A DNA stretch of 64,000 nucleotides from Fidelibacterota bacterium. Lineage in GTDB: Bacteria; Fidelibacterota; UBA2242; B5-G15. The stretch covers positions 67,821 through 131,820 of the forward strand of contig JACDNV010000007.1 of assembly GCA_017656425.1 (NCBI GenBank). Direction: 5' to 3'. The notes beneath the pieces were generated by a model. That model saw only the letters and a program-made list of their open reading frames with translations. It had not been told where the DNA came from and ran no database searches. Both the position numbers and the translations under genes were made by a program. Shown piece by piece: positions 2,889 through 26,171 of this stretch (the stretch's first letter is position 1; the number at the start of each line of letters is the position of its first letter).

Positions 2889-4418
2889 TTAGTCTCTATT
2901 TAAAGTTTCTCTTGAAAATACCTGTGCAGAGAATATACTAATTTCAGTATCTGGGTCTTTCCATGCATTACGAGGTAAACCAGCCTTTAGACATGTGTGT
3001 TCAAGAAAAGTTTCTCTATCCCAACCATATTCCACAGCAACCTGTGGAAGTAATAGTCCCTGATAAAATCCACGTTTTATAATCAGTCCATGTTTACCAA
3101 CCTCTATTTTTTCGGGGTCATCAATTTTTTCAGGAACTGTCAGTACCGATATTTCGACTTCAATATCATCTAATTCATCAGGTGATACTGGTTTGAATCT
3201 GGGGTCATGTAATGCAGCACCTGTAGCTGCTTCTATTACCGTTTTATATAGCGGGTAGACCGGTAGTACATAACCGATGCAACCTCTTAATTCTCCATGT
3301 TTATTTATTGTTACAAAGGCGCCTCTTTCTTCTTTTAACTTATCGGGTACATCATCAGGGTTTGGTTTTGGTTTACCATTTACAACTCTATTAATTGTTT
3401 CTTCTGCCAGTTCTATTAGATAGATCTGATCCTGTTTATTTAATTCCCCTTGTAAAAGAGTTTCTTTTTTATTTTTCTCCCGACTCATTTTGCCTCCACC
3501 TTTTGATTTAAAAATAGCAGCGGCCAAATATCCAACCACTCTATCTTTTGAAGTCGCAGGAACATCACCGCTATTGGCATGTTTTAAAATTTTAATAGAA
3601 TTTATCCCAGCCTTTTTTGCTGCTATTAACGCAGCGGTGATTGCGGCACCACCACAAGCTTCATAATCCTTGGATATTAGTCCATAATAAAATTTTTCTG
3701 GGTCCATATTTTTCAATTGTCTGATCAATCTTCCATCTATTTTATTGCATTCTTCATATGAGTGATAATGAGACAGATCGCTTGATACGACAATTAGGAT
3801 ATTATCATTTTTCAAAGTTTCTCCCAGCTTATTTCCAAGTGCCTGTATGACCTTATAATTCATTGTGCCGATTATAATTGGTACAATTTTGATATCTGAT
3901 TTTATCACCTGAATAAACGGCAATTCAACCTCAAGACAGTGTTCCCCTCTGTTAAATGCAGGACCTAAATGTCCCCTATTTGAAAGTTTGATGTATTTTT
4001 CGTTATTAGTTATTTCTTTCGAAAGATCTTTATTAATAGGTATTTTGCCAAGAGGTGTTTCGTAATAATCTCCATTGTATACTGATGCAAATTCGAAGTA
4101 ATCAATATGAGAAGGACCGATAAGAATTATTGTCCCGTAGTCGAAAGGTCTTATTTCCTTAAATGAATAGGCAGCAACCTGTCCACTATAAATGTAGCCT
4201 GCGTGGGGACAGATTAGAATATTAGGTTTGGATTTTAGTATTGGTTCTCCAGCTTTTTCTAAGAAGTTATTAATCATTGCTTTAAGTTCATATTTATTAG
4301 AAGGATAGAAAGCACCCGCAGCTACCGGTTTACGCACCTGTGGATAGGTATTTACAATAAAAATACAGAAAATAGCGATAATGATTAAAGCTACCTTTTT
4401 ACATAAATTGTCAATCAT
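2889..4418 (-). CDS. fused Memo-like (AmmeMemoRadiSam protein B) + AMMECR1 (protein A) protein with N-terminal hydrophobic leader
   Basis: The N-terminal half has Memo hallmarks (RKPVAAGAFYP, ICPHAGYIYSG, SSDLSHY). The C-terminal half has AMMECR1 hallmarks (GAFVTINKHGELRGCIGY, DPRF.PV, ISVL). I chose the ATG at 4418 because it forms an ATGA overlap with the upstream stop at 4415-4417. The leader is MIDNLCKKVALIIIAIFCIFIV. Confidence 0.85.
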   Translation of the reverse strand: MIDNLCKKVALIIIAIFCIFIVNTYPQVRKPVAAGAFYPSNKYELKAMINNFLEKAGEPILKSKPNILICPHAGYIYSGQVAAYSFKEIRPFDYGTIILIGPSHIDYFEFASVYNGDYYETPLGKIPINKDLSKEITNNEKYIKLSNRGHLGPAFNRGEHCLEVELPFIQVIKSDIKIVPIIIGTMNYKVIQALGNKLGETLKNDNILIVVSSDLSHYHSYEECNKIDGRLIRQLKNMDPEKFYYGLISKDYEACGGAAITAALIAAKKAGINSIKILKHANSGDVPATSKDRVVGYLAAAIFKSKGGGKMSREKNKKETLLQGELNKQDQIYLIELAEETINRVVNGKPKPNPDDVPDKLKEERGAFVTINKHGELRGCIGYVLPVYPLYKTVIEAATGAALHDPRFKPVSPDELDDIEVEISVLTVPEKIDDPEKIEVGKHGLIIKRGFYQGLLLPQVAVEYGWDRETFLEHTCLKAGLPRNAWKDPDTEISIFSAQVFSRETLNRD

Positions 4419-5545
4419 TTCCAGACTCCGGGAATATCTTTGCCACAAAATTTGCACTTTCCATCAACTATGTTATTTTCTTTTATTGAAAAACCAAGTC
4501 TTTGAATAAGTAGCTTATTGCAATTAGGGCAGTATGTATTTTCTGCTTGATGACCTGGAACATTGCCTATATAGACGAAATTTAGTCCAGCATCTTTTGC
4601 AGTATTATAAGCTATTTCAAGTGTTTTAACAGGAGTTGGAGGCAGATTGGTAAGTAAATACTCTGGATGAAATCTTGTGAAGTGAATCGGAACATCAGGA
4701 CCTAGATTACTCAATATCCATTTGGACATATTTGCTATTTCTTCTTTTTTATCGTTAAGAGTTGGTATAACCAGGTATACCATTTCAAACCATTTATTGC
4801 TTTCTTTAAGTGTGACGAGAGTATCAAGTACCGGTTTGAGTGTCCCCCTAACTATTTTTTTATAAAAATTATCATTAAATGATTTTAAATCTATTTTCAC
4901 AGCATCCAGTACACCACATAAATCCTGCATCGGCTTTTTATTTATATATCCATTGCTAATCATTACGCTGCGTACATTGTGGTTTTTCCCAAAAGAAGCA
5001 CAGTCATAGACATATTCAGTGAAAACTACAGGTTCTGTATAAGTAAAAGCCATTGTTGGTGATTTGTATTTTACCGCAAGTGATACTAATTGATCAGGTG
5101 GGACAAATTTTGATGGTACCTCTTCAGGTAGCGCCTGAGCAATATTCCAGTTCTGACAAAATTTGCAATCCACATTACAGCCTGCTGTGGCAACCGATAG
5201 AGCATTTGTACCGGGTAGAAAGTGAAATAGAGGTTTTTTTTCTATAGGATCGATATGAATTGCTACAAGCCTACCGTACACTAGTGTATAATATGTACCG
5301 TTTTGATTTTCCCTTACATCGCAATAACCTCGGTTTCCATCGGATACAAAACATTCTCTTGGGCAGAGCTGACATTGAACTATATTTTCTTCAATCTTCT
5401 TGTAATATCTTGCTTCTTTTTTATAAGGTTCTTTTAGGTCTGCCAGTAATTTTTCCGGGAGCAGCTTGGTGTAACTAACAGTCAGTGCTATCCCGGCTCC
5501 TGTGTATTTCAAAAATTTTCTTCTATCCAATACTTTGTTTGCCAT
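4415..5545 (-). CDS. AmmeMemoRadiSam-type radical SAM enzyme with twin-arginine signal-like N-terminus
   Basis: It has a CNVDCKFCQNW (CxxxCxxC) radical SAM cluster motif and the N-terminal Cys-rich CQLCPRECFV..GYC typical of this PflA-like subfamily. It is adjacent to, and translationally coupled with, the Memo/AMMECR1 gene. The N-terminus DRRKFLKYTGAGIALTV matches the Tat consensus (S/T)RRxFLK. Confidence 0.85.
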   Translation of the reverse strand: MANKVLDRRKFLKYTGAGIALTVSYTKLLPEKLLADLKEPYKKEARYYKKIEENIVQCQLCPRECFVSDGNRGYCDVRENQNGTYYTLVYGRLVAIHIDPIEKKPLFHFLPGTNALSVATAGCNVDCKFCQNWNIAQALPEEVPSKFVPPDQLVSLAVKYKSPTMAFTYTEPVVFTEYVYDCASFGKNHNVRSVMISNGYINKKPMQDLCGVLDAVKIDLKSFNDNFYKKIVRGTLKPVLDTLVTLKESNKWFEMVYLVIPTLNDKKEEIANMSKWILSNLGPDVPIHFTRFHPEYLLTNLPPTPVKTLEIAYNTAKDAGLNFVYIGNVPGHQAENTYCPNCNKLLIQRLGFSIKENNIVDGKCKFCGKDIPGVWK

Positions 5546-5631
5546 AATAAACTAAGATCAATTTATATAAACATAGTGTTTTTGTCAATTATGATGAAAA
5601 AGTTCCTATTAAAATGAAAAAATTTTTACAA

Positions 5632-7164
5632 TTATGTGGAGTAGCGTCTTTCACCTTCTCTAATCACTATGATCCCTGGCTCTCCATCGATGGGACATTT
5701 ATATTCGCAAATACCACAACCTATGCATAATTCCGGGATAACGTATGGGTAGTATACTTCCATGTATCGGTTGTATTGCTTATTAAAGACTGTTTTCCTT
5801 TCTAATTTTATAGCTTTTTCTGGTACAGGGCAGTGTTCTTCACAAACTATACAATTATCATCAAGTCTATAGGGTATGCATCTATCTTTCTGAATAACGG
5901 CGGTTCCCATTTTTACTTCTTTTTTTTCATCGATACTAAGAGGTCTTATTGCTCCAGTTGGACACACATTCCCGCATAAGTTACATTCATATTCACAGTA
6001 ACCAACATTATAATTATTTCTCGGTGTCATAAATCCCGTAACCCCAGTTGTTAATATGCTAAATTGGAGACATCCTCCAGAGGTTGAGCATGCTCTTATA
6101 CATCCACCACATCTGATGCATAAATCACGGAACTGATCTTCTTTCACTGCTCCGGGAGGTCTTATTAATCTATCATTGCTAGTTCTATCCGAGCTTACTT
6201 TTAAAATTCCTGCTCCGATTACTGAGAAAATACCAAATTTTAAAACGGCACGCCTAGTTGTACTTGGACCTTTCGCATAGATGAACGGAGAAGTAAACTT
6301 AAATGATATGCTATCCTTTGGACAGTCCTCTGTACAATTCAAACATAAAATACATTCTGATTTATCAGTTGATATATAGTCAGCATTTATGGCATCCATT
6401 TTACAATTTTTCTTGCATAAACTGCAATTAGTACATGTTTCATCAACTTTCCTTTTTAATATACTAAATCGTGAGATGAAACCCAGCAGCGCACCGAGCG
6501 GACATAGATTTCGACACCAGAACCTTTTTGAGATAAAATTTAATAATAATATTGTGATAAATATTAAAAATGGAACCATTAAGTTTGTAAAGGAAGGTGC
6601 ATTTATTGGGAAAAATAATGTTGATATTTTGTCAAATATACTATAGAAAAATTCGGGGAGTAAGTTAATCGAGATGAAAAATTCCGGAATACTTCCTATT
6701 ATTGAATAAAATACTGGGAGAATAAGAATGGCATAAGATCGCCATACTATTGGTATTGGATCAAAGTACCATGATAGTTGATATCCAAATAAGGCAATGG
6801 AGATAAAAAATATTAAAGCGAGGTATTTTACCTTCCTTGTTTTTATTGAACTGGTAGTTCTTTCTCTTTTTATTATATTATCAACAATGTCAATGGTAGT
6901 TCCAAGTGGGCAAATCCATCCACAAAAAGCTCTTCCAAAGATTATAGGGGATAATAGAATTATAATTGAAAGAAGTAATATAGGATTGAAATATCTCGAT
7001 GCAAAGAGGGGACCGACAAGATTGAGCGGGTCGAAGATTACAAATATTTTCGATAAAAAAAATAATTTAAATGGATAGACTGAAACTGCGATGGATATTA
7101 TTAAAAGCCCTAAAAAGGCTAATTGTACGAGTTTTCGAATAAGTATTAGTTTTTTATAGTTCAT
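5632..7164 (-). CDS. fused NapH/MauN-like membrane Fe-S protein + NapG/MauM-like polyferredoxin
   Basis: The N-terminal half has several TM helices and two FCGWICPLG / WCRNLCPLG motifs plus two CxxCxxCxxxCP motifs (NapH-like). Residues about 301-322 read STTRRAVLKFGIFSVIGAGILK, an internal Tat-like motif plus helix. RLIRPPGA and four more CxxCxxCxxxCP-type motifs follow (NapG-like). Confidence 0.75.
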   Translation of the reverse strand: MNYKKLILIRKLVQLAFLGLLIISIAVSVYPFKLFFLSKIFVIFDPLNLVGPLFASRYFNPILLLSIIILLSPIIFGRAFCGWICPLGTTIDIVDNIIKRERTTSSIKTRKVKYLALIFFISIALFGYQLSWYFDPIPIVWRSYAILILPVFYSIIGSIPEFFISINLLPEFFYSIFDKISTLFFPINAPSFTNLMVPFLIFITILLLNFISKRFWCRNLCPLGALLGFISRFSILKRKVDETCTNCSLCKKNCKMDAINADYISTDKSECILCLNCTEDCPKDSISFKFTSPFIYAKGPSTTRRAVLKFGIFSVIGAGILKVSSDRTSNDRLIRPPGAVKEDQFRDLCIRCGGCIRACSTSGGCLQFSILTTGVTGFMTPRNNYNVGYCEYECNLCGNVCPTGAIRPLSIDEKKEVKMGTAVIQKDRCIPYRLDDNCIVCEEHCPVPEKAIKLERKTVFNKQYNRYMEVYYPYVIPELCIGCGICEYKCPIDGEPGIIVIREGERRYST

Positions 7165-7177
7165 TCTATTTCTCTGT

Positions 7178-8086
7178 TTACGAAAAACTATAGACAGCAG
7201 GTTTGTATTTATTTATATCCATTCTACCAAGACCCTGCTCATAAGCATTTTTTATGAAACCTAAATTGGCTGGATTTATTCCAAATATTTGAGCTGACCA
7301 GGCTTCGATGAGTACCCTATCTGTTCCAGCAAGGATTATATTTGCATTTTCTACATCTTCTAATCTACCTCCCTGGGGTCCATGAGCCTTTAATATTCGG
7401 GTGGCATCAACGATAGTTAAAGTTGGCTTGATCACTTTATTTATATCAACGATTTTCTGATCAAAATTTCTATGGATTATTCCTCTATTACCACCTATTA
7501 TACCCATTGTATTTTTAAGCCCTACTGTGATTCCTGGTAACCCATGATGTTTTAAAATCGGTAGGTTTATGTATTTATCTGCTTCCAGAGCTGGCTTGAA
7601 AAATTCCCACTCTTTTAAATCTATACCATCAGGTATCCTTACAGTTGTAAAGTGATAGTCTCTTACATACATCACATCTGCACCAGCTTTACTGGCAGCT
7701 TCCTGAATGCCACTATTTATGTAGCATCTTTTTGTTTCCTGGCAGGTTCTATCTGCAACAATTACCTTTTTTGCGCCAGCATTTAAGCATTCTTCAACGA
7801 CAGTTCTGACTACTTCAGGGTGAGTATTTGCAGCATATTCTGGTGACCTATCCCAGCTTATATTCGGTTTTATAAATACCACATCTCCTCTATTTATGAA
7901 TTTTCTCATACTACCGAGCATTTCTAATGCTTTTTTTACCATTTGCTCTGGTGCCCCATTTTTTACCATTACAAGTTCTTCTGTAAGGGCTGAACCAGAT
8001 AATAATTTATTAATTCTAACAAGAGAGGTTGCTATTAGCAAAATAGAACTTTTTAAAAATTTTCTCCTGTCCATAATTATCCTCAA
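7178..8086 (-). CDS. DUF362 domain protein with twin-arginine signal
   Basis: The N-terminus MDRRKFLKSSILLIATSLV is a perfect RRxFLK motif; the start may be the Met at 8074. The body shares blocks with the paralog at 50011-51168: KPN(I/L), LP(I/K).KxH...GIT...KN..G, and IVDA......GP.GG. Confidence 0.75.
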   Translation of the reverse strand: MRIIMDRRKFLKSSILLIATSLVRINKLLSGSALTEELVMVKNGAPEQMVKKALEMLGSMRKFINRGDVVFIKPNISWDRSPEYAANTHPEVVRTVVEECLNAGAKKVIVADRTCQETKRCYINSGIQEAASKAGADVMYVRDYHFTTVRIPDGIDLKEWEFFKPALEADKYINLPILKHHGLPGITVGLKNTMGIIGGNRGIIHRNFDQKIVDINKVIKPTLTIVDATRILKAHGPQGGRLEDVENANIILAGTDRVLIEAWSAQIFGINPANLGFIKNAYEQGLGRMDINKYKPAVYSFS

Positions 8087-8148: not shown

Positions 8149-8928
8149 TTAAATTTTTATTAGGAGAACTATTGGATCCTGTTTCTCCTGAATTATAGAA
8201 AATAGTTTAGACTTGTAGTTTTTATGTATTTCATATAATGAGTCATTATTTACATCGTCTGCTATTAGTATGCCATTATTTTTCAAAAGTTTAAATCCTA
8301 TTTCGCATTCCCTTTTCATGTAAAGGTAATTGTGATTTGAATCGTGTATGAAAATATCTATACCTTTAAATTTTTCCATTTGGTTTTTAATTATTCTTAG
8401 GCTTGGACCTCTAAGGAATATCCAGCTCTTTTTTAAGCATTCAGGAATATATAAACCTACCTCTTCTTCGTAGTTTTTGATCAGAGCTGGTAAATCTATG
8501 CTGTAAAGTTTACCCAAGCCATTTAACCTTAGTGCATTAAGTATATAATATGTACTTAATCCTCTTCCAACCCCTGTTTCCAGAATCTTTTCAGGTTTTT
8601 TAACTCGAACTATGAGATAAATTAAAAGGGCAAATTCCCAGCTGGCATCCGAATAGTTTGGGATTGATGATGTTACTTTTGTATCAGGGTAGGGTAATTC
8701 CTCAAACTCTTTAATTAGTTTTAATTCGTCAATTGGATTTATTGATACCTCAAACAATATCTTGTTTATATCGGCTTCATTTTTAATATAATAATCCAGG
8801 TATTTTGAATGCTTTTTAAGGCTATTAGATGGATTATAGCTTGAATACCAGGTATAATAAGCCAGCCATAGTGGATTTTTAAAAGATGTTTTTAAAAGCT
8901 CTTTTAATTCGGATACTTTTTCATTCAT
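8149..8928 (-). CDS. class I SAM-dependent methyltransferase (CmcI/Methyltransf_24-like)
   Basis: It has an ILETGVGRGLSTYY glycine-rich SAM-binding motif, later acidic motifs (YSIDL, IFIHDSNH) and LIADDV. Confidence 0.65.
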   Translation of the reverse strand: MNEKVSELKELLKTSFKNPLWLAYYTWYSSYNPSNSLKKHSKYLDYYIKNEADINKILFEVSINPIDELKLIKEFEELPYPDTKVTSSIPNYSDASWEFALLIYLIVRVKKPEKILETGVGRGLSTYYILNALRLNGLGKLYSIDLPALIKNYEEEVGLYIPECLKKSWIFLRGPSLRIIKNQMEKFKGIDIFIHDSNHNYLYMKRECEIGFKLLKNNGILIADDVNNDSLYEIHKNYKSKLFSIIQEKQDPIVLLIKI

Positions 8929-10619: not shown

Positions 10620-11198
10620 ATGAAAGAGAGAAATAATGCTGCTGAGGTACGATGGTATGCCGTTTACACAAAATCAAGGCATGAGAAAAAAGTTTATGAA
10701 ATGCTTGTTAAGAAAAATATTGAAGCATTTCTTCCGTTAAAAAGAGAGTATCATCAATGGTCTGATAGAAAAAAGATGGTTGAAGAGCCTTTAATTAGAA
10801 GCTATGTTTTTGTTCATATACCACTTCAGAGATCTCTTGATGTTTTGGAAACTCAGGGGGCTGTAAAGTTTGTCATGTTCAAAGGCAATTACGCTCCAAT
10901 ACCAGATTTCCAAATAGAAGCTCTAAAAAGAACTCTTCAGAATGGGGTTGTTCTTGAACCAGTATGTTACTTGAAAATTGGTCAGCTTGTGGAAGTTATA
11001 GACGGTCCATTAAAAGGTATAATTGGTCGAATACAGAGAATAAAAAGTCAGGATAGATTCGTAATTTCCCTTGATGCAATTCAGTACTCATTTCTTGTAG
11101 ATATAAATCCCATATTGTTAAAGCCTATTAGCGAGGAAAGGAAGGAGAAAATCTTTACATTGCCATTGGGGATTGGAGATGCCGACAATATTTTATAA
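10620..11198 (+). CDS. NusG-paralog transcription antiterminator (UpxY-like)
   Basis: It has an NGN-type N-terminus (WYAVYTKSRHEKKV...IEAFLP) and a KOW-like segment (GQLVEVIDGPLKGIIGRIQ). Confidence 0.75.
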   Translation: MKERNNAAEVRWYAVYTKSRHEKKVYEMLVKKNIEAFLPLKREYHQWSDRKKMVEEPLIRSYVFVHIPLQRSLDVLETQGAVKFVMFKGNYAPIPDFQIEALKRTLQNGVVLEPVCYLKIGQLVEVIDGPLKGIIGRIQRIKSQDRFVISLDAIQYSFLVDINPILLKPISEERKEKIFTLPLGIGDADNIL

Positions 11199-14446: not shown

Positions 14447-17400
14447 TTATTTCATCAACAGCATTTTTCCGCTGCTGGTAAACTTACCGCGTACATTTGT
14501 TCTGTAAATATAAATACCAGATGGTACTTTTAGTCCATTCGAATCGGTAGCATCCCAGATAACTTTATAGGTTCCTGGATTATAATTGGATGATGCGATA
14601 TTCTTGATTAGTCTACCGTTGATATCGTATATGGACAGTTGTACAAATCCTGCCTCAGGAAGGTCAAATTTAATATTAGTCGTTGGGTTGAATGGATTCG
14701 GAAAGTTCTGATAGAGTGCGAATTTCTCTGGTATTTTCCCTTCTTCAGCAATTGCTGTGTATGTTAGGCTTACTTCGGCGCTTGGAGCACTCTTATTACC
14801 ATTGGCGTCTACGGCAACTACAGTATAATAATAGGTATTTCCAACCTCAATGTCACTATCAATCACATTCGTCTCAATAGTTTTAAAAGCCGGTTCTGAT
14901 GTATAGCTACCCTGGGTTGTACTCTTATAAACTTCATAATATCCAAAATCTTCATCTGGAATAGCTTCCCAGCTTACTGAAATACCTTCAACGGAAGTTG
15001 AAGCAGTAACATTCCCAGGAACAGAAGGAACAATATTATCAACAGAATAACCAGCTTCCGGTCGTGAATCATAGAAATCCCACATTCCATATTGTGTATG
15101 ACCTGATACAACAAAAGTTGACCAGTATTCGCCAGTGTCATCGGTGTAAGCATTTGAATCTATTAATGTATGTGCATCAAGACGATATACAGTATCACCA
15201 TGGAATGGTATATAGGTAACAAAATCCCATTTATAGGCATATGGATCACCAAGTTGATCAATGGGTTTAAAGGTTTGAATTCTCCATACGCTCCATCCTT
15301 CAAATGGCATTTCATCCCAATCCAAACCACCCCAAAATACTATTCTTACCCATCTGCCCTGATCGTGTGGTATGTCACGAACGGCTAAAATTTTAGGTAG
15401 TCTTAACGCTGCTTCCAATCCGATATTAATTTCTACAGTGTTATCCGATATTGTAAAATCGATAGGCTCACTTGGTATAAATCCATAAGCACCAGCTGTG
15501 ATTTCAAAGTTACCATTCGGTAAGGGTATATAGTATCTACCTGAGTCATCGGTTCCTCCATAAAACCATTCATCAGTATCTACATTATAGACATCAACCC
15601 ATGCCCATTTTATAGGTCTGTTTGTGTAGCTGTCAAAAACTATTCCCTGCACAGCTCCGGCGGGTTCTCTTAATAATATATCAAGCCAGATTGAATCACC
15701 TTGAACATCGATCGTATCTATATGTACTGGTAGATATTGAAAGTCAGACCATATATCTAAAACATATGTGCCGTTTGGTACATGAAAGTTAAATTCTCCA
15801 TTATCATCTGTTTCCTTATGGTAATAGAATTCAGCAGGAGATGTTCTAAATATATTAACCATAATACTGGATACTGGATTATCTGATTCATCTTTTACCT
15901 GTCCCGCTATAATACTGAATTGTGTTAAAGGTGTTAGAGAAGCATCTTTTATGAGACCCATTTCAGGAACCCAGACGTCATATTCAATATATGGATAGTG
16001 TTTTTCGGCAAAAACTTTGAAAACGTAACTGCCAGGTTCAGTCCACAGGTTATATTCACCATTTTCATCTGTCATTGTTTCTTGATGCCATGGACCGTCG
16101 AAAACTACCAGTGCATCTGGTATGGGATTACCTGCTGTATCGGTAATTACGCCCTGGACTAATGGCAGTGTTTTTGGCTCGAGAAAAATGTCGTGTTGTA
16201 TCATTTCCCCTGATATCGTAATCGATGAATCTGTATAATCATCATAGCCGGGAGCTCCAGCATGGAGGATATAGTTACCATCAGGTAAATACATCATATA
16301 TTGTCTTGTTTCCCAATCTATACCTGAATAAAACCATTTTCCATCATCCATTCTCTCAGCTGATATCCATACATCCATTAGTGTATCAGAGGTTTCAGAG
16401 TCAATTACATATCCAAATAATCCTCCATTTACAGTGTAGGCATGGAAATCAATACCTTCAGAACCAGCTGGAATATTATCATATTGTTCTTCTACATAGA
16501 AGTTTTCAAAATCAAGTTCAAGATGTAAATGATATCCTTCAGGTCCTGATTTAACATTTAAGGTATAATTTCCGTTTTCATCTGTTTCATCTGCAGTTAT
16601 TCCATAGGTATCATGCCAGCAGAAGACTCTCGCACCCTCTATAGGATTATCATCTAAATATACTGTTCCAGAAATTGTTTCATCCGTCGGATATAAAATT
16701 AATTCTAAGTCTACAGTTTCACCTTCACTAATGTAGATCTCTTGACCCGGTGGGACTAGATACCCTTCAAGTGATAATGGATCAACTCCTATCCAGTATG
16801 CACCTTCCATAAGATTTATTGAAAAGTTACCCTGATCATCGGTAATTAGGTCGATGTGTATTGGTCCGTCTTTGCTGGATACATATATTTCCGCACCTGG
16901 TATTGGATTCCCATTGTCATCTTGTACTACTCCGGAGAGAGTACAATTTCCTTGGACCATTGTGAAGTCAAAACCTACCTCGTCCCCCATGACTGACTGA
17001 TTTTCATATAGAAACGGATCGGGATATAACCCTGGATATATCCCGAGATGATCAAAAGCCATTATATTGTAATACCCTTCATCTGGAACGTTTACACGAT
17101 ATGTTCCATCACTTTCTGTTAAAGTAATCCAAGAGACACCAGGGGCTGGAGGACCTTCAGTTCCACCAGTTGCTTCCGCATCTTCTACTATTATGACGAT
17201 ATAGGGTAAGGGATTACTGGACTCATCGGTGACTGTGCCCGAAACTGAGTAGATTGTTGAAAGATTCTGGAATGAGATGGATACCATTTCTTCCTCAGTA
17301 CCTGATGAAACGGCTACAATGAAATCCCATATAATATTAATAAATGATGCATCTTTCTCACCAATAGCACTCATATCCAGTTGATAGAAACCAGCAGTTG

Positions 17401-17971
17401 GATCGGAGTCATAAATATCGTTATCTTCTAGGTCCACAGAAAAAATAGTAGTATCAATACCACTATCGAAAATTCCATTTTTGTTAAAATCAACTATTAC
17501 TTCCAAAGTTGCCTGTGTCTCTCCTGTGGGGAATGTCCATGTTAAAATTGGCGCGGCTCCTACCTCAACAGTATCTGCAGTCACTCCATCAGCAAGTAAA
17601 TTTAGTGTCTCTTGTGTGACTTTAAATAACGGGGAGAGTTTAGATCTTTCCCTTCTGGATTTCTGGACATTCATGAAGTGTCCTTCTTCTGAGATACTTT
17701 GAATAGCGGAATTCATTTTAACATGAAATTGTGATTGATGTTTTAACTGGCTGAGATTCTGCTGAGATTTTTCCTTTAACTGAAACTGATTTACTTTCAA
17801 CATTTGATTTCTTACCTGTAGCTTCTGTCTGGCAGCCTTTAATTGATTGATTAGTTCCTGATTGTCAGTATCTTTTGCAAAAACATCTGGCAAGGAGAAC
17901 AGTAAGGCTACAAGAAGAAATGCTACAGAAAGCATTTTGAACGTTTTTGAGAATGCTTCTTTTCCTTCCAT
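14447..17971 (-). CDS. large secreted protein with carboxypeptidase-regulatory-like repeats, Fn3-like domain and T9SS C-terminal sorting domain
   Basis: Signal peptide KMLSVAFLLVALLFSLPDVFA. About 7 repeats of the G.V.D..GNPIP.A.V type (CarboxypepD_reg-like). The C-terminus FALYQNFPNPFNPTTNIKFDLPE...GIYIYR...KMLLMK is typical of T9SS type A sorting domains. The ORF extends to 18040; the ATG at 17971 follows GGAGGG. Confidence 0.8.
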   Translation of the reverse strand: MEGKEAFSKTFKMLSVAFLLVALLFSLPDVFAKDTDNQELINQLKAARQKLQVRNQMLKVNQFQLKEKSQQNLSQLKHQSQFHVKMNSAIQSISEEGHFMNVQKSRRERSKLSPLFKVTQETLNLLADGVTADTVEVGAAPILTWTFPTGETQATLEVIVDFNKNGIFDSGIDTTIFSVDLEDNDIYDSDPTAGFYQLDMSAIGEKDASFINIIWDFIVAVSSGTEEEMVSISFQNLSTIYSVSGTVTDESSNPLPYIVIIVEDAEATGGTEGPPAPGVSWITLTESDGTYRVNVPDEGYYNIMAFDHLGIYPGLYPDPFLYENQSVMGDEVGFDFTMVQGNCTLSGVVQDDNGNPIPGAEIYVSSKDGPIHIDLITDDQGNFSINLMEGAYWIGVDPLSLEGYLVPPGQEIYISEGETVDLELILYPTDETISGTVYLDDNPIEGARVFCWHDTYGITADETDENGNYTLNVKSGPEGYHLHLELDFENFYVEEQYDNIPAGSEGIDFHAYTVNGGLFGYVIDSETSDTLMDVWISAERMDDGKWFYSGIDWETRQYMMYLPDGNYILHAGAPGYDDYTDSSITISGEMIQHDIFLEPKTLPLVQGVITDTAGNPIPDALVVFDGPWHQETMTDENGEYNLWTEPGSYVFKVFAEKHYPYIEYDVWVPEMGLIKDASLTPLTQFSIIAGQVKDESDNPVSSIMVNIFRTSPAEFYYHKETDDNGEFNFHVPNGTYVLDIWSDFQYLPVHIDTIDVQGDSIWLDILLREPAGAVQGIVFDSYTNRPIKWAWVDVYNVDTDEWFYGGTDDSGRYYIPLPNGNFEITAGAYGFIPSEPIDFTISDNTVEINIGLEAALRLPKILAVRDIPHDQGRWVRIVFWGGLDWDEMPFEGWSVWRIQTFKPIDQLGDPYAYKWDFVTYIPFHGDTVYRLDAHTLIDSNAYTDDTGEYWSTFVVSGHTQYGMWDFYDSRPEAGYSVDNIVPSVPGNVTASTSVEGISVSWEAIPDEDFGYYEVYKSTTQGSYTSEPAFKTIETNVIDSDIEVGNTYYYTVVAVDANGNKSAPSAEVSLTYTAIAEEGKIPEKFALYQNFPNPFNPTTNIKFDLPEAGFVQLSIYDINGRLIKNIASSNYNPGTYKVIWDATDSNGLKVPSGIYIYRTNVRGKFTSSGKMLLMK

Positions 17972-18089
17972 TTTTCCCTCCATATAAAACTCATTTATAT
18001 TATAAGTTAATATATTTAAATAATTTGTGATTTCAAACACAATTTGATGTATTTTTATAAGTTTTTAAATGTAACTATATCATTATTTT

Positions 18090-24518: not shown

Positions 24519-26171
24519 ATGACAAAAAGAAAATTTTTAACAATAAGTTTGTCGTTAATTTTTATGAATATTTTAGTATTAGGACAAAATCCTAATAGAA
24601 TATATGATATTGATGATTGGATTACATATAAAAACTGTAATTATGTAACAAGTTTATGTGAAACTCCAGAATATGTCTATTTTGGTACGAGTGGAGGTAT
24701 AATCCCTTATCATAAATTTAAAAGATGCTTTGAAGACCCTATTACGAGGAGCAATGGTCTAAGCGGTGATATCATTAAGAGTATTTGCTATGATTGGACT
24801 ACAGGATATTTATGGGTTGTACACGAAAATGGGATAAGTTACAGGAATCCATCAGATAGGAGGTGGAATAATCTTCCATTTACATCAATTGGTATAACTC
24901 AACCGAGTAATCTTCTAAGGATTGGTTCTGATGGTGCCTATATATGGGTCCAGATAAATGGTAATGAATACATAAAACTTGACAAATTTGTGGGTTACAG
25001 GTTGGGTAAAGAAATTCCACATGATTCTGTCCACTGGAGTATATCATCAGCTGATTATTTCCGTGATTATAGTGCATATACCGTTGATGGTAATTATCAA
25101 TGTTATTCAGATGGTATGGTTGTAGATCCATTATTCAGGAAATATTCAATATCAGTTTTTTATGTAGCAAGTGATGGGAAAATATATGGAGGACTCACTG
25201 GAGGTGGAATCATAATTGGTGATGAAAATACGAAGTTTTTATCGATTAAACAGCTTGGTCCATTAAACAATAATGTAACGACCGTCGCTGTAGGTAGAGA
25301 CAGAATATTTCTTGGTAGCAGTGAGTCAACGGGATATCTTTTTTCTCAGAGAACTGGAGTTTCTTCTTTTGATTTAAATGGATATGTATGGGAATATTTT
25401 GAGAGTGGTTATATATTTGAATTAGCAGATAAAATTGTTAATAAGATTTGTTTTAATGGTGAAAGTCTTGTAATAGGTACTTCGCAGGGAGTAGTTGTGT
25501 ATGAAATTTCCAGGGGATTGTGGGATATTGAATTTTTAGATAAGTATTTGCCCGATCAAAAGGTGATATCGCTTGCTTTTAATGATTCTTTGGTATTTGC
25601 CGGGACTGAGTATGGGTTATTAGCTTTTAGTTTACCATACTTGAAGCTGGAAGAAAGAATATCGACAATTCCTGTATATACGAATGTCTTAGATATGGTT
25701 ATTAATCAAAATGATTTATGGATTGCAACATCCAATGGAATATATTTGATTAACACCTCGACGGGTGAGATGTCTCATTATGATATGTATTTTAAAAGAA
25801 TTGATAATGATGACATAGTGGCTTTTAGTGTTGATGCTATTGAATATTCCAATGGAAGAGTATTTTATAATCGAAGACAGGATTTATATCTGTATAATAT
25901 CGAAAATAATAAGGTTGTTGATTTGCCGACTATTTCAAGTAATAAAAATCTTATAATCTTGGATATGAAGGTGTATGATAACTATTTATGTGTTGCAACT
26001 AATGATGGAATATTTATGATTAATCTTGAAGATAATTATTATGAGCATCTAACAATTGATGACGGAATCGGCGGAGAGCTGGTTTATGAGGTATGTTTTT
26101 ATAATGATTATTTGTGGCTTGCGACTAATAATGGTTTGACTAAATTTAATTGGAGGAAATATTATGATTAA
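24519..26171 (+). CDS. secreted beta-propeller protein (two-component-regulator-propeller-like repeats)
   Basis: Signal peptide, then recurring blades of the type LW(I/L)AT.NG(I/L)..(I/F)N (for example LWIATSNGIYLIN, LWLATNNGLTKFN, VFAGTEYGLLAF, LCVATNDGIFMINL). Confidence 0.55.
   Translation: MTKRKFLTISLSLIFMNILVLGQNPNRIYDIDDWITYKNCNYVTSLCETPEYVYFGTSGGIIPYHKFKRCFEDPITRSNGLSGDIIKSICYDWTTGYLWVVHENGISYRNPSDRRWNNLPFTSIGITQPSNLLRIGSDGAYIWVQINGNEYIKLDKFVGYRLGKEIPHDSVHWSISSADYFRDYSAYTVDGNYQCYSDGMVVDPLFRKYSISVFYVASDGKIYGGLTGGGIIIGDENTKFLSIKQLGPLNNNVTTVAVGRDRIFLGSSESTGYLFSQRTGVSSFDLNGYVWEYFESGYIFELADKIVNKICFNGESLVIGTSQGVVVYEISRGLWDIEFLDKYLPDQKVISLAFNDSLVFAGTEYGLLAFSLPYLKLEERISTIPVYTNVLDMVINQNDLWIATSNGIYLINTSTGEMSHYDMYFKRIDNDDIVAFSVDAIEYSNGRVFYNRRQDLYLYNIENNKVVDLPTISSNKNLIILDMKVYDNYLCVATNDGIFMINLEDNYYEHLTIDDGIGGELVYEVCFYNDYLWLATNNGLTKFNWRKYYD

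Follow-up and report, generated by a model that had tools for sequence, protein, structure and literature searches.

The AmmeMemoRadiSam system is a trio of an AMMECR1 protein (protein A, TIGR04335), a Memo protein (protein B, TIGR04336) and a radical S-adenosylmethionine (SAM) enzyme (TIGR04337), and is usually taken to be cytoplasmic. Radical SAM enzymes as a whole have, to our knowledge, been treated as strictly cytoplasmic, since they need SAM, a low-potential electron and iron-sulfur (Fe-S) cluster assembly. The anaerobic sulfatase-maturating enzymes, for example, are cytoplasmic and leaderless and act on exported sulfatases. Here we describe an AmmeMemoRadiSam locus in a window of 64,000 nucleotides (nt) from a Fidelibacterota bacterium (contig JACDNV010000007.1; all positions are those of the window). 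As in the sulfatase systems, its radical SAM enzyme is genetically tied to a protein partner predicted to be exported, but the enzyme itself bears a twin-arginine translocation (Tat) leader, replaced in some lineages by a leader of the general secretory (Sec) type. We regard the locus as probably, if by no means certainly, an envelope-facing version of the system, which implies, as far as targeting signals can tell, that its Fe-S radical SAM enzyme would work at or beyond the cytoplasmic membrane. The functional prediction published for AMMECR1 is cytoplasmic RNA base modification (PMC2034487), and it is the only one that we found in the searchable literature. The same literature yielded no description of an exported AmmeMemoRadiSam form or of a Tat- or Sec-targeted radical SAM enzyme, and no described link of the system to a SpeE-like membrane protein, DUF362, a polyferredoxin or CcdA.

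The trio of the window is a bona fide AmmeMemoRadiSam system in which proteins A and B are fused. The genes are adjacent, a pairing that recurs in related loci, and all three components exceeded the curated cutoffs in profile searches. The Memo half of the fusion matched PF01875 with 215 bits and TIGR04336 with 262 bits (cutoff 26; amino acids (aa) 29-301), and the AMMECR1 half matched PF01871 with 204 bits and TIGR04335 with 198 bits (cutoff 99; aa 334-501). Its active-site motifs are intact (PHAGYIYSG, GPSH, SSDLSH, ACG and RGCIG), including those of the Memo metal site. An earlier note on this DNA, made from the sequence alone, had left it to a hidden Markov model to place the radical SAM protein within the AmmeMemoRadiSam family; it belongs there, with 383 bits against TIGR04337 (cutoff 220). 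The profile begins at residue 45, which leaves an N-terminal extension of 44 aa. The CX3CX2C motif is intact and reads CNVDCKFC (aa 123-130, nt 5156-5179), and there are two further groups of four Cys residues, C58/61/65/75 and C339/342/364/367. By profile search the enzyme is of the PflA-like activase type, a type that acts on proteins. The system differs from the described one in that each component bears an export signal, and in that the trio is linked to a SpeE-like protein with 14 transmembrane (TM) helices and to periplasm-directed redox partners. The closest named homologues are from Marinimicrobia, alias Neomarinimicrobiota or Fidelibacterota.

Leaders of the window proteins were judged by rule, from sequence and hydropathy. 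The motifs quoted in the earlier note are all present: MDRRKFLKSS in the DUF362 protein, STTRRAVLKFG inside the polyferredoxin, DRRKFLKYTGAGIALTV in the radical SAM enzyme and, in the Memo-AMMECR1 fusion, a hydrophobic leader preceding VRKPVAAGAFYP. The radical SAM leader (MANKVLDRRKFLKYTGAGIALTVSY..LLA) fits the Tat consensus of the S/T-R-R-x-F-L-K type with DRRKFLK followed by the moderately hydrophobic YTGAGIALTVSY; it scored 17.9 bits against TIGR01409, above the cutoff of 16.7, and 18.3 bits against PF10518, below the cutoff of 22.7. The DUF362 leader (MDRRKFLKSSILLIATSLV..SGSA) has DRRKFLK, an h-region and SGSA, but only a sub-cutoff match to PF10518 (14.2 bits) and none to TIGR01409. 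In the AlphaFold2 (AF2) model it lies outside the fold, with a pLDDT of 55-75 versus more than 94 for the domain. The best 19-aa Kyte-Doolittle means are 0.86 for the radical SAM leader and 1.31 for the DUF362 leader, too low for either h-region to form a membrane helix. The corresponding value for the Memo-AMMECR1 leader, which has no clear AxA site, is 2.42. That all four minus-strand products may be targeted to or across the membrane, as had been proposed, is thus borne out at the level of conserved targeting signals. Judging from these signals and from the topologies described below, it is likely that Tat exports the radical SAM enzyme and DUF362, that Memo-AMMECR1 is a Sec or lipoprotein substrate, and that the NapG-like half of the polyferredoxin and the SpeE-like domain face the periplasm. 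Because of the predicted Tat and Sec targeting and the periplasm-facing domains, the system is predicted to operate on the outer face of the cytoplasmic membrane.

The signals are conserved far beyond the window. We collected 164 loci (members of the collection are labeled L001 and so on): 80 from a scan of one genome per species, 80 from metagenomes, three others and the window; the genome set comprises 84 loci. The 80 loci of the genome scan come from more than 25 phyla, and the phyla and groups include KSB1, Acidobacteriota, Planctomycetota, Verrucomicrobia, Latescibacterota, Zixibacteria, Omnitrophota, Thermodesulfobacteriota, Nitrospiraceae, Elusimicrobia, Chlamydiae, Ignavibacteriaceae and Altiarchaeota. 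Leaders with RR or a lineage-specific S/T-K-R-x-F were classed as Tat-type, and strongly hydrophobic leaders without RR as Sec-type. By this rule the radical SAM leader was Tat-type in 105 of the 164 loci, Sec-type in 28 and absent from 25, the rest being weak or cut by a contig end. Among 85 radical SAM genes classified in the genome set, 62 had an RR leader, three a KR leader and 14 a Sec-type leader. In database gene calls, RR-x-hydrophobic followed by at least 11 uncharged residues was found within the first 45 residues of 112 of the 120 closest radical SAM homologues, and the others mostly had charge-interrupted RR motifs or truncated gene calls. This count and the 105 Tat-type loci also answer the question, raised in the earlier note, of whether orthologous radical SAM proteins share the Tat motif. 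In the alignment of the radical SAM leaders only R8, R9 and F11 are nearly invariant and the other positions vary freely; with conservation confined to RR-x-F, the leader behaves as a signal peptide.

The partner proteins follow the same pattern. An RR and an uncharged stretch were present in the first 45 residues of 117 of the 120 closest DUF362 homologues (database gene calls), and 22 to 23 of the 25 DUF362 genes neighboring a radical SAM gene were Tat-type. The Memo(-AMMECR1) leader was Sec-type in 47 of 51 scored loci with a Tat-type radical SAM gene; of the other four, one was Tat-type, two were weak and one was truncated at the end of its contig. In the Sec-type class it was Sec-type in each of the 13 scored loci. 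About 20 Memo-AMMECR1 leaders have clear lipoboxes followed by Ser/Gly/Pro-rich linkers (such as LVGC|TT, PLGC|KA, TQGC|SG, VPGC|AE and LTAC|NP), and many other homologues have AxA-type sites immediately before the R-x-P-x-x-A-G-x-F-Y start. Fully leaderless pairs were seen only in L080 (Paludibacteraceae) and L084, both lacking the SpeE-like gene, a number too small for a conclusion; among the 25 loci with a leaderless radical SAM gene, the SpeE-like gene was present in six.

Two further observations concern the radical SAM enzyme. One clade (L049, L055, L068, L073, L075, L076 and L082) combines a Tat leader with an insert of about 55 aa containing ARYW..CxxCH..H. The CxxCH was considered as a heme-c marker of the periplasm and set aside, since the insert resembles a diverged duplicate of the enzyme's own ARYY..CxxCPxxC. 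In an Omnitrophota locus (L062:8679-11125), two radical SAM paralogues stand in tandem, one leaderless and one with an RR leader.

The most conserved neighbor of the radical SAM gene is the SpeE-like gene, which lies 2 nt outside the interval treated in the earlier note and was left out there. Linkage was counted from phmmer matches; single-linkage clustering was dropped, as it had merged shadow open reading frames (ORFs) into the SpeE-like family. Within the genome set, 44 of 84 loci have a SpeE-like homologue next to the radical SAM gene, as do 63 of the 105 Tat-type loci; these are minimum figures, with either orientation counted and many loci truncated. In the reverse direction, two of three SpeE-like homologues checked stand directly beside a radical SAM gene. 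The protein matches PF01564 (Spermine_synth) with 46 bits, and its AF2 model (pLDDT 89.6, pTM 0.89) consists of seven TM helices, a soluble domain and seven further TM helices. The soluble domain has the full aminopropyltransferase fold (TMt 0.71-0.78 to 1uir, 6bq2, 3o4f and 1inl, which comprise Thermus, E. coli, Thermotoga and plant enzymes). Foldseek with the whole model gave aminopropyltransferase matches only and nothing for the membrane part; the hints there are weak, sub-threshold matches to the major facilitator superfamily. By the positive-inside rule the spermidine-synthase-fold domain is predicted to face the periplasm: the loops that would then be cytoplasmic contain on average 20.3 Lys plus Arg versus 3.0 in the opposite ones, with the same direction in 26 of 26 homologues. 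In two homologues, L083:7182-11126 (Pirellulales) and P0148 (L169:6001-8877), the protein is fused C-terminally to an extra TM helix and an FMN_bind domain, and the L083 fusion additionally has NosR/NapH-type Fer4_5 motifs. The FMN_bind domain is periplasmic in NosR, RnfG and NqrC. Eight helices, counted by hand from hydropathy, separate the SpeE-like and FMN_bind domains in the fusions, so the two should lie on the same side of the membrane.

Like SpeE, then, the window protein has a whole aminopropyltransferase fold, and three nucleotide-binding motifs (GGGxGG, VELD and DGR) as well as E..xH are retained in the family consensus. It differs from SpeE in that the domain sits between two 7-TM bundles and is predicted to be periplasmic, in that the catalytic DSxDP is replaced by NLPxP (NLPLP in the window), and in scoring far below the equivalog cutoffs (71 bits versus 472 for SpeE).

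The accessory genes of the trio track the export route of the radical SAM enzyme, DUF362 going with Tat leaders and CcdA with Sec leaders. DUF362 was linked in 33 of the 105 Tat-type loci versus one of the 28 Sec-type loci. The CcdA/DsbD_2 gene (PF13386) was found in none of the 105 Tat-type loci versus 16 of the 28 Sec-type loci (Fisher p = 2e-13, which is overstated because the loci are related). In L031 (2863-3555) and 15 other loci, mostly of Omnitrophota and all with a Sec-type radical SAM leader, this gene adjoins the radical SAM and SpeE-like genes or separates them. CcdA moves reducing equivalents to the outward side of the cytoplasmic membrane; since its linkage makes sense only for an extracytoplasmic target, the Sec-type proteins would also lie outside.

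Membrane or periplasmic ferredoxin-type modules such as NapGH, MauM/MauN and NosR/NirI serve Tat-exported periplasmic redox enzymes or their maturation. The window polyferredoxin resembles them, its best NCBIfam matches being NapH (aa 192-289) and NapG (aa 309-501). It differs in that the two halves are fused and the scores stay far below equivalog level (95 bits versus a cutoff of 269 for NapG; 76-83 bits versus cutoffs of 213-234 for NapH), and no nap, mau or nos genes are at the locus. The ORFs of the window's first 14 kb, which cover both sides of the cluster, include no nap gene, and the polyferredoxin locus is not a Nap system. In the NapH-like half, two of the TM helices are each followed by a CxxxCP motif (C81..C85-P and C217..C221-P), and a predicted cytoplasmic 2x[4Fe-4S] domain comes next (Cys groups 244-254 and 271-281). 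The NapG-like half continues with LIRPPGA and four Cys clusters (349-359, 390-401, 429-445 and 480-490). The helix that follows the internal RR has a Kyte-Doolittle mean of 1.70 versus 2.2-2.4 for the strongest earlier helices, and R327, R332 and R335 come after it. This arrangement of RR, h-region, positive charges and RPPG is kept in the homologues of L009, L010, L013, L139, L145 and L164-L166.

The closest described protein is the MLMS-1 polyferredoxin (Q1NSB0; Tooke et al. 2017, eLife; PMC5449189), in which NapH and NapG are fused, five TM helices cross the membrane, and three clusters lie inside versus four outside. Its family is inserted by Sec and Tat jointly, and the last helix was shown to be Tat-dependent by reporter fusions (PMC5449189). 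The window protein shares the NapH-like half with CxxxCP motifs and predicted cytoplasmic clusters, the RR directly before a weakly hydrophobic last TM helix with positive charges behind it, and the four-cluster NapG-like half; the comparison rests on architecture, not on measured sequence relatedness. The internal RR-plus-helix pointed out by the earlier note thus fits an experimentally tested dual Sec/Tat family, and by analogy Sec and Tat would jointly insert the window polyferredoxin and leave its NapG-like half outside. The difference lies in the context, which is absent from PMC5449189: the window gene forms a pair with a Tat-type DUF362 gene, next to the AmmeMemoRadiSam cluster.

The DUF362 protein gave a confident AF2 model (pLDDT 93.2), for which the best Foldseek matches were to the lactate racemase (LarA) family, the nickel-pincer enzymes (E 6e-8 to 5e-5, TMq about 0.5); a search of its sequence against chain sequences of the Protein Data Bank gave no match. 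DUF362 shares the Pfam clan CL0471 with the LarA superfamily and DUF2088 (PMC11770544). The window protein is shorter than LarA (298 versus about 420 aa) and has a Tat-type leader. Columns invariant in the alignment of homologues include K69, K175, H177, H201 and D223. If the LarA-like fold holds a cofactor, as it may, this would explain the use of Tat.

DUF362 and the polyferredoxin form a two-gene module in its own right that is also found without the radical SAM system. The pair is adjacent in Geothermobacter ehrlichii with no AmmeMemoRadiSam genes within 8 kb, and both genes occur in the same neighborhood in a Trichlorobacter contig. Conservation of the gene neighborhood, which the earlier note had suggested checking, was found in two distant groups. 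In a Fidelibacterota metagenome-assembled genome (MAG; L166) the window order recurs as DUF362, polyferredoxin, a 155-aa ORF, radical SAM, Memo-AMMECR1 and a convergent SpeE-like gene. Polyferredoxin, DUF362 and radical SAM genes also co-occur in Acidobacteriota (L008-L010, L013 and L139). The arrangement in that phylum begins with polyferredoxin and DUF6599, continues with a DUF362 of another type, radical SAM, Memo-AMMECR1 and SpeE-like, and closes with a DUF362 of the window type; Terriglobia and Acidobacteriaceae have the complete cluster. DUF362 genes often overlap the start codon of the radical SAM gene. The small lipoprotein-like gene DUF6599 recurs just upstream of DUF362 or radical SAM genes in Tat-type clusters in about 10 loci (such as L013:8254-8760 and L001:6531-7001).

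The features of the locus are collected in Table 1. The four minus-strand ORFs are co-directional, with a 4-nt ATGA overlap between Memo-AMMECR1 and radical SAM and gaps of 86 and 13 nt; here the ORF coordinates agree exactly with the layout given in the earlier note. The Memo-AMMECR1 and DUF362 ORFs start with ATG and have alternative starts at 4457 (GTG) and 8086 (TTG), respectively. The SpeE-like and Memo-AMMECR1 genes converge tail to tail with stop codons 2 nt apart. No terminator-like hairpin was found in the 86-nt gap, and its one promoter-like match (TTGACA-17-TAAATT, 5588..5560) is of a kind that occurs at chance level across the region.

Table 1. Coordinates of the genes and sequence features of the locus (window positions; leaders and topologies are predicted)
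Feature	Position	Strand	Details
SpeE-like polytopic protein, 729 aa	697..2886	+	7 TM, domain aa ~225-495, 7 TM
Memo-AMMECR1 fusion, 509 aa from ATG	2889..4418	-	Memo nt 3519-4328, AMMECR1 nt 2916-3413
Memo-AMMECR1 Sec-type leader or signal anchor (MIDNLCKKVALIIIAIFCIFIVNTYP)	4341..4418	-	Kyte-Doolittle 2.42
AmmeMemoRadiSam radical SAM enzyme, 376 aa	4415..5545	-	TIGR04337 383 bits, Cys positions (see text)
Radical SAM twin-arginine leader (MANKVLDRRKFLKYTGAGIALTVSYTKLLPEKLLA)	5441..5545	-	TIGR01409, conserved R8/R9/F11
86-nt intergenic gap, polyferredoxin/radical SAM	5546..5631	-	Promoter-like match, no terminator-like hairpin
NapH-like/NapG-like fusion polyferredoxin, 510 aa	5632..7164	-	Two Fer4_5, NapH/NapG profiles
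Internal Tat motif TTRRAVLKF and fifth TM helix	6193..6264	-	RR aa 304-305, helix aa 306-324
DUF362 protein, 298 aa	7178..8074	-	PF04015 185 bits, LarA-like fold
DUF362 twin-arginine leader (MDRRKFLKSSILLIATSLVRINKLLSGSA)	7988..8074	-	PF10518 sub-cutoff, low pLDDT, homologues

Around the cluster, a Methyltransf_24 gene for a SAM-dependent methyltransferase (8149-8928, minus strand) lies co-directionally 62-74 nt upstream of DUF362 and is not kept in the Fidelibacterota relative L166. On the other side, a gene that looks from its sequence to be of the NlpC/P60 type (147-671) occupies the position of an FGE-sulfatase-domain gene in relatives; that gene adjoins the SpeE-like gene in two of them (L166:15923-16768, from the Fidelibacterota MAG, and L167:5042-5878). 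Further along, the product of 10620-11198 (plus strand) resembles a UpxY-type NusG paralogue and its gene stands upstream of one that appears from its sequence to be cysS-like. A 1197-aa protein (14447-18040, minus strand) has CarboxypepD_reg repeats and a C-terminal FlgD_ig-like domain, and another (24519-26171, plus strand) has a PorZ-like beta-propeller; in the FCB group such features are associated with type IX secretion. Housekeeping genes predominate among the remaining large downstream ORFs that were profiled (NusA, IF-2, PNPase, SMC, RtcB and a tricorn-like protease). No TatA-like motif was found across the 64-kb window, which is uninformative.

From here we infer actual export, electron flow from the polyferredoxin or DUF362 to the radical SAM cluster, and action on an extracytoplasmic substrate. 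The radical SAM enzyme would be exported folded, Fe-S clusters included, via Tat, and the Memo-AMMECR1 fusion would be exported or anchored via Sec, probably as a lipoprotein in many relatives, while the 14-helix protein would contribute a periplasm-facing spermidine-synthase-fold domain. The redox module would consist of a Tat-exported, LarA-like DUF362 and a Sec/Tat-inserted NapH-NapG polyferredoxin with four [4Fe-4S] clusters outside, and would most likely move electrons across or along the membrane to periplasmic partners. The radical SAM enzyme may then act outside the cytoplasm on Memo-AMMECR1 or on an envelope substrate; Memo-AMMECR1 itself suggests itself as the target because the enzyme is PflA-like. 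It is possible, though we lean slightly against it, that the polyferredoxin, perhaps through DUF362, gives its electron to the radical SAM cluster. The proposal of the earlier note, that the NapGH-like protein and DUF362 may feed electrons from the quinone pool to the radical SAM enzyme, is not established by the linkage: the polyferredoxin is present in nine and DUF362 in 33 of the 105 Tat-type loci, and the pair stands alone in Geothermobacter ehrlichii. As a speculation, the SpeE-like protein might supply or handle SAM or a related nucleoside; alternatively, the enzyme might be exported SAM-bound. The fullest version of this scheme is one that we hold only tentatively and think rather doubtful. 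It would have radical SAM chemistry proceed outside the cytoplasm, with SAM or a SAM-derived nucleoside passed across the membrane by the SpeE-like protein, or with SAM exported bound and used catalytically. Electrons would come via NapH-NapG/NosR-type polyferredoxins and DUF362 in Tat-type loci or via CcdA in Sec-type loci, and the target would be Memo-AMMECR1 or an envelope molecule.

Several points weigh against an envelope-facing system. We know of no supply of SAM or of low-potential electrons for a radical SAM enzyme outside the cytoplasm, and quinol is far too oxidizing to reduce a radical SAM cluster. The window copy of the SpeE-like protein has GVGNYE in place of GGGxGG, Q311 for E, R343 where 25 of 26 have D, and S372 for R; with G293, E311 and D343 among the lost residues, its domain may have ceased to bind a nucleotide. 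Only about 9% of the Tat-type loci have a linked polyferredoxin, and its pair with DUF362 also occurs on its own. Sec-type leaders on a multi-cluster enzyme, seen in 28 loci, are hard to square with cofactor insertion, since they imply that the cofactors are inserted outside the cell; we know of no machinery that does this for such clusters. A short-N clade of radical SAM enzymes (M..VQCELCP start) from Nitrospiraceae, Omnitrophota, Pirellulales and many metagenome contigs is leaderless (L046, L070, L083, L103, L108, L111, L112, L118, L125, L128, L131, L149 and L155), and the Memo-AMMECR1 beside it, where present, still begins with a Sec-type or anchor leader, scored as Sec-type at 12 of 13 loci. 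This clade was exposed by a metagenome scan with leaderless radical SAM queries, in which the relatives were again mostly leader-bearing. Finally, leaders were classed with a rule of our own on ORFs taken from stop to stop, and the loci were picked by similarity to a leader-bearing query and are phylogenetically related, which inflates the p-values.

Some of these points would be met if the radical SAM enzyme were a cytoplasmic maturase that modifies Memo-AMMECR1, or a leaderless AMMECR1, before or during export, its Tat leader serving for hitchhiking or docking and no radical chemistry taking place outside. The problem of SAM and reductant would then vanish, an enzyme of the PflA-like type acts on proteins anyway, and a leaderless radical SAM clade beside leader-bearing Memo-AMMECR1 proteins would be expected. 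The stand-alone leaderless AMMECR1 genes next to a Tat-type radical SAM gene in three loci (L004, L094 and L129) also look as a hitchhiker would. Yet most Memo-AMMECR1 partners use Sec and would cross unfolded, apart from the enzyme, and a cytoplasmic maturase has no obvious reason to bear an export leader in 133 of 164 cases or to be linked to a periplasm-directed polyferredoxin and CcdA; we therefore consider such a maturase unlikely. Access to SAM and reductant would also be kept under the alternative offered by the earlier note, in which uncleaved anchors, formed by the RR and hydrophobic segments, hold a cytoplasm-facing complex at the membrane; vestigial Tat motifs akin to the chaperone-binding remnant of NarG could do the same. 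The window Memo-AMMECR1 leader, with no AxA site and ambiguous flanking charges, would suit an anchor, and the cytoplasmic clusters of the NapH half could serve a cytoplasmic enzyme. The h-regions of radical SAM and DUF362, however, are too weak to span the membrane, and positive residues on the N-terminal side would still put the domain outside. Lipoboxes and AxA sites in Memo-AMMECR1 homologues, the SpeE-like and fused FMN_bind domains predicted outside, and the CcdA linkage also speak against anchors, which leaves this alternative quite improbable.

A different question is whether DUF362 and the polyferredoxin belong to the system at all. They could be an independent periplasmic redox enzyme with its own substrate that gives no electrons to AmmeMemoRadiSam. 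The pair alone in Geothermobacter ehrlichii and its shared neighborhood in Trichlorobacter are in line with this, as are the 86-nt gap with a promoter-like match between the pair and the window radical SAM gene and the polyferredoxin's presence in so few Tat-type loci. The juxtaposition nevertheless recurs in phyla as distant as Fidelibacterota (L166) and Acidobacteriota (L008-L010, L013 and L139), DUF362 overlaps the radical SAM start codon in many loci and goes almost only with Tat-type radical SAM genes, and in L083 and P0148 the SpeE-like partner carries a fused NapH/NosR-like module. An independent role for the pair accordingly strikes us as a minority possibility, one that deserves to be kept in view.

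An envelope-facing AmmeMemoRadiSam system challenges the rule that radical SAM enzymes work only in the cytoplasm, with a clade spread over more than 25 phyla, one Altiarchaeota genome included, in which the radical SAM enzyme, both conserved partners and the redox accessories are equipped with export signals. The dual Sec/Tat polyferredoxin family and DUF362, for neither of which we know of an assigned function, gain a natural genomic setting as well. The finding argues against a universal role of bacterial AMMECR1 in RNA modification. The Memo/AMMECR1/radical SAM trio itself gains a predicted cellular address and testable partners in the SpeE-like protein, DUF362, the polyferredoxin and CcdA.

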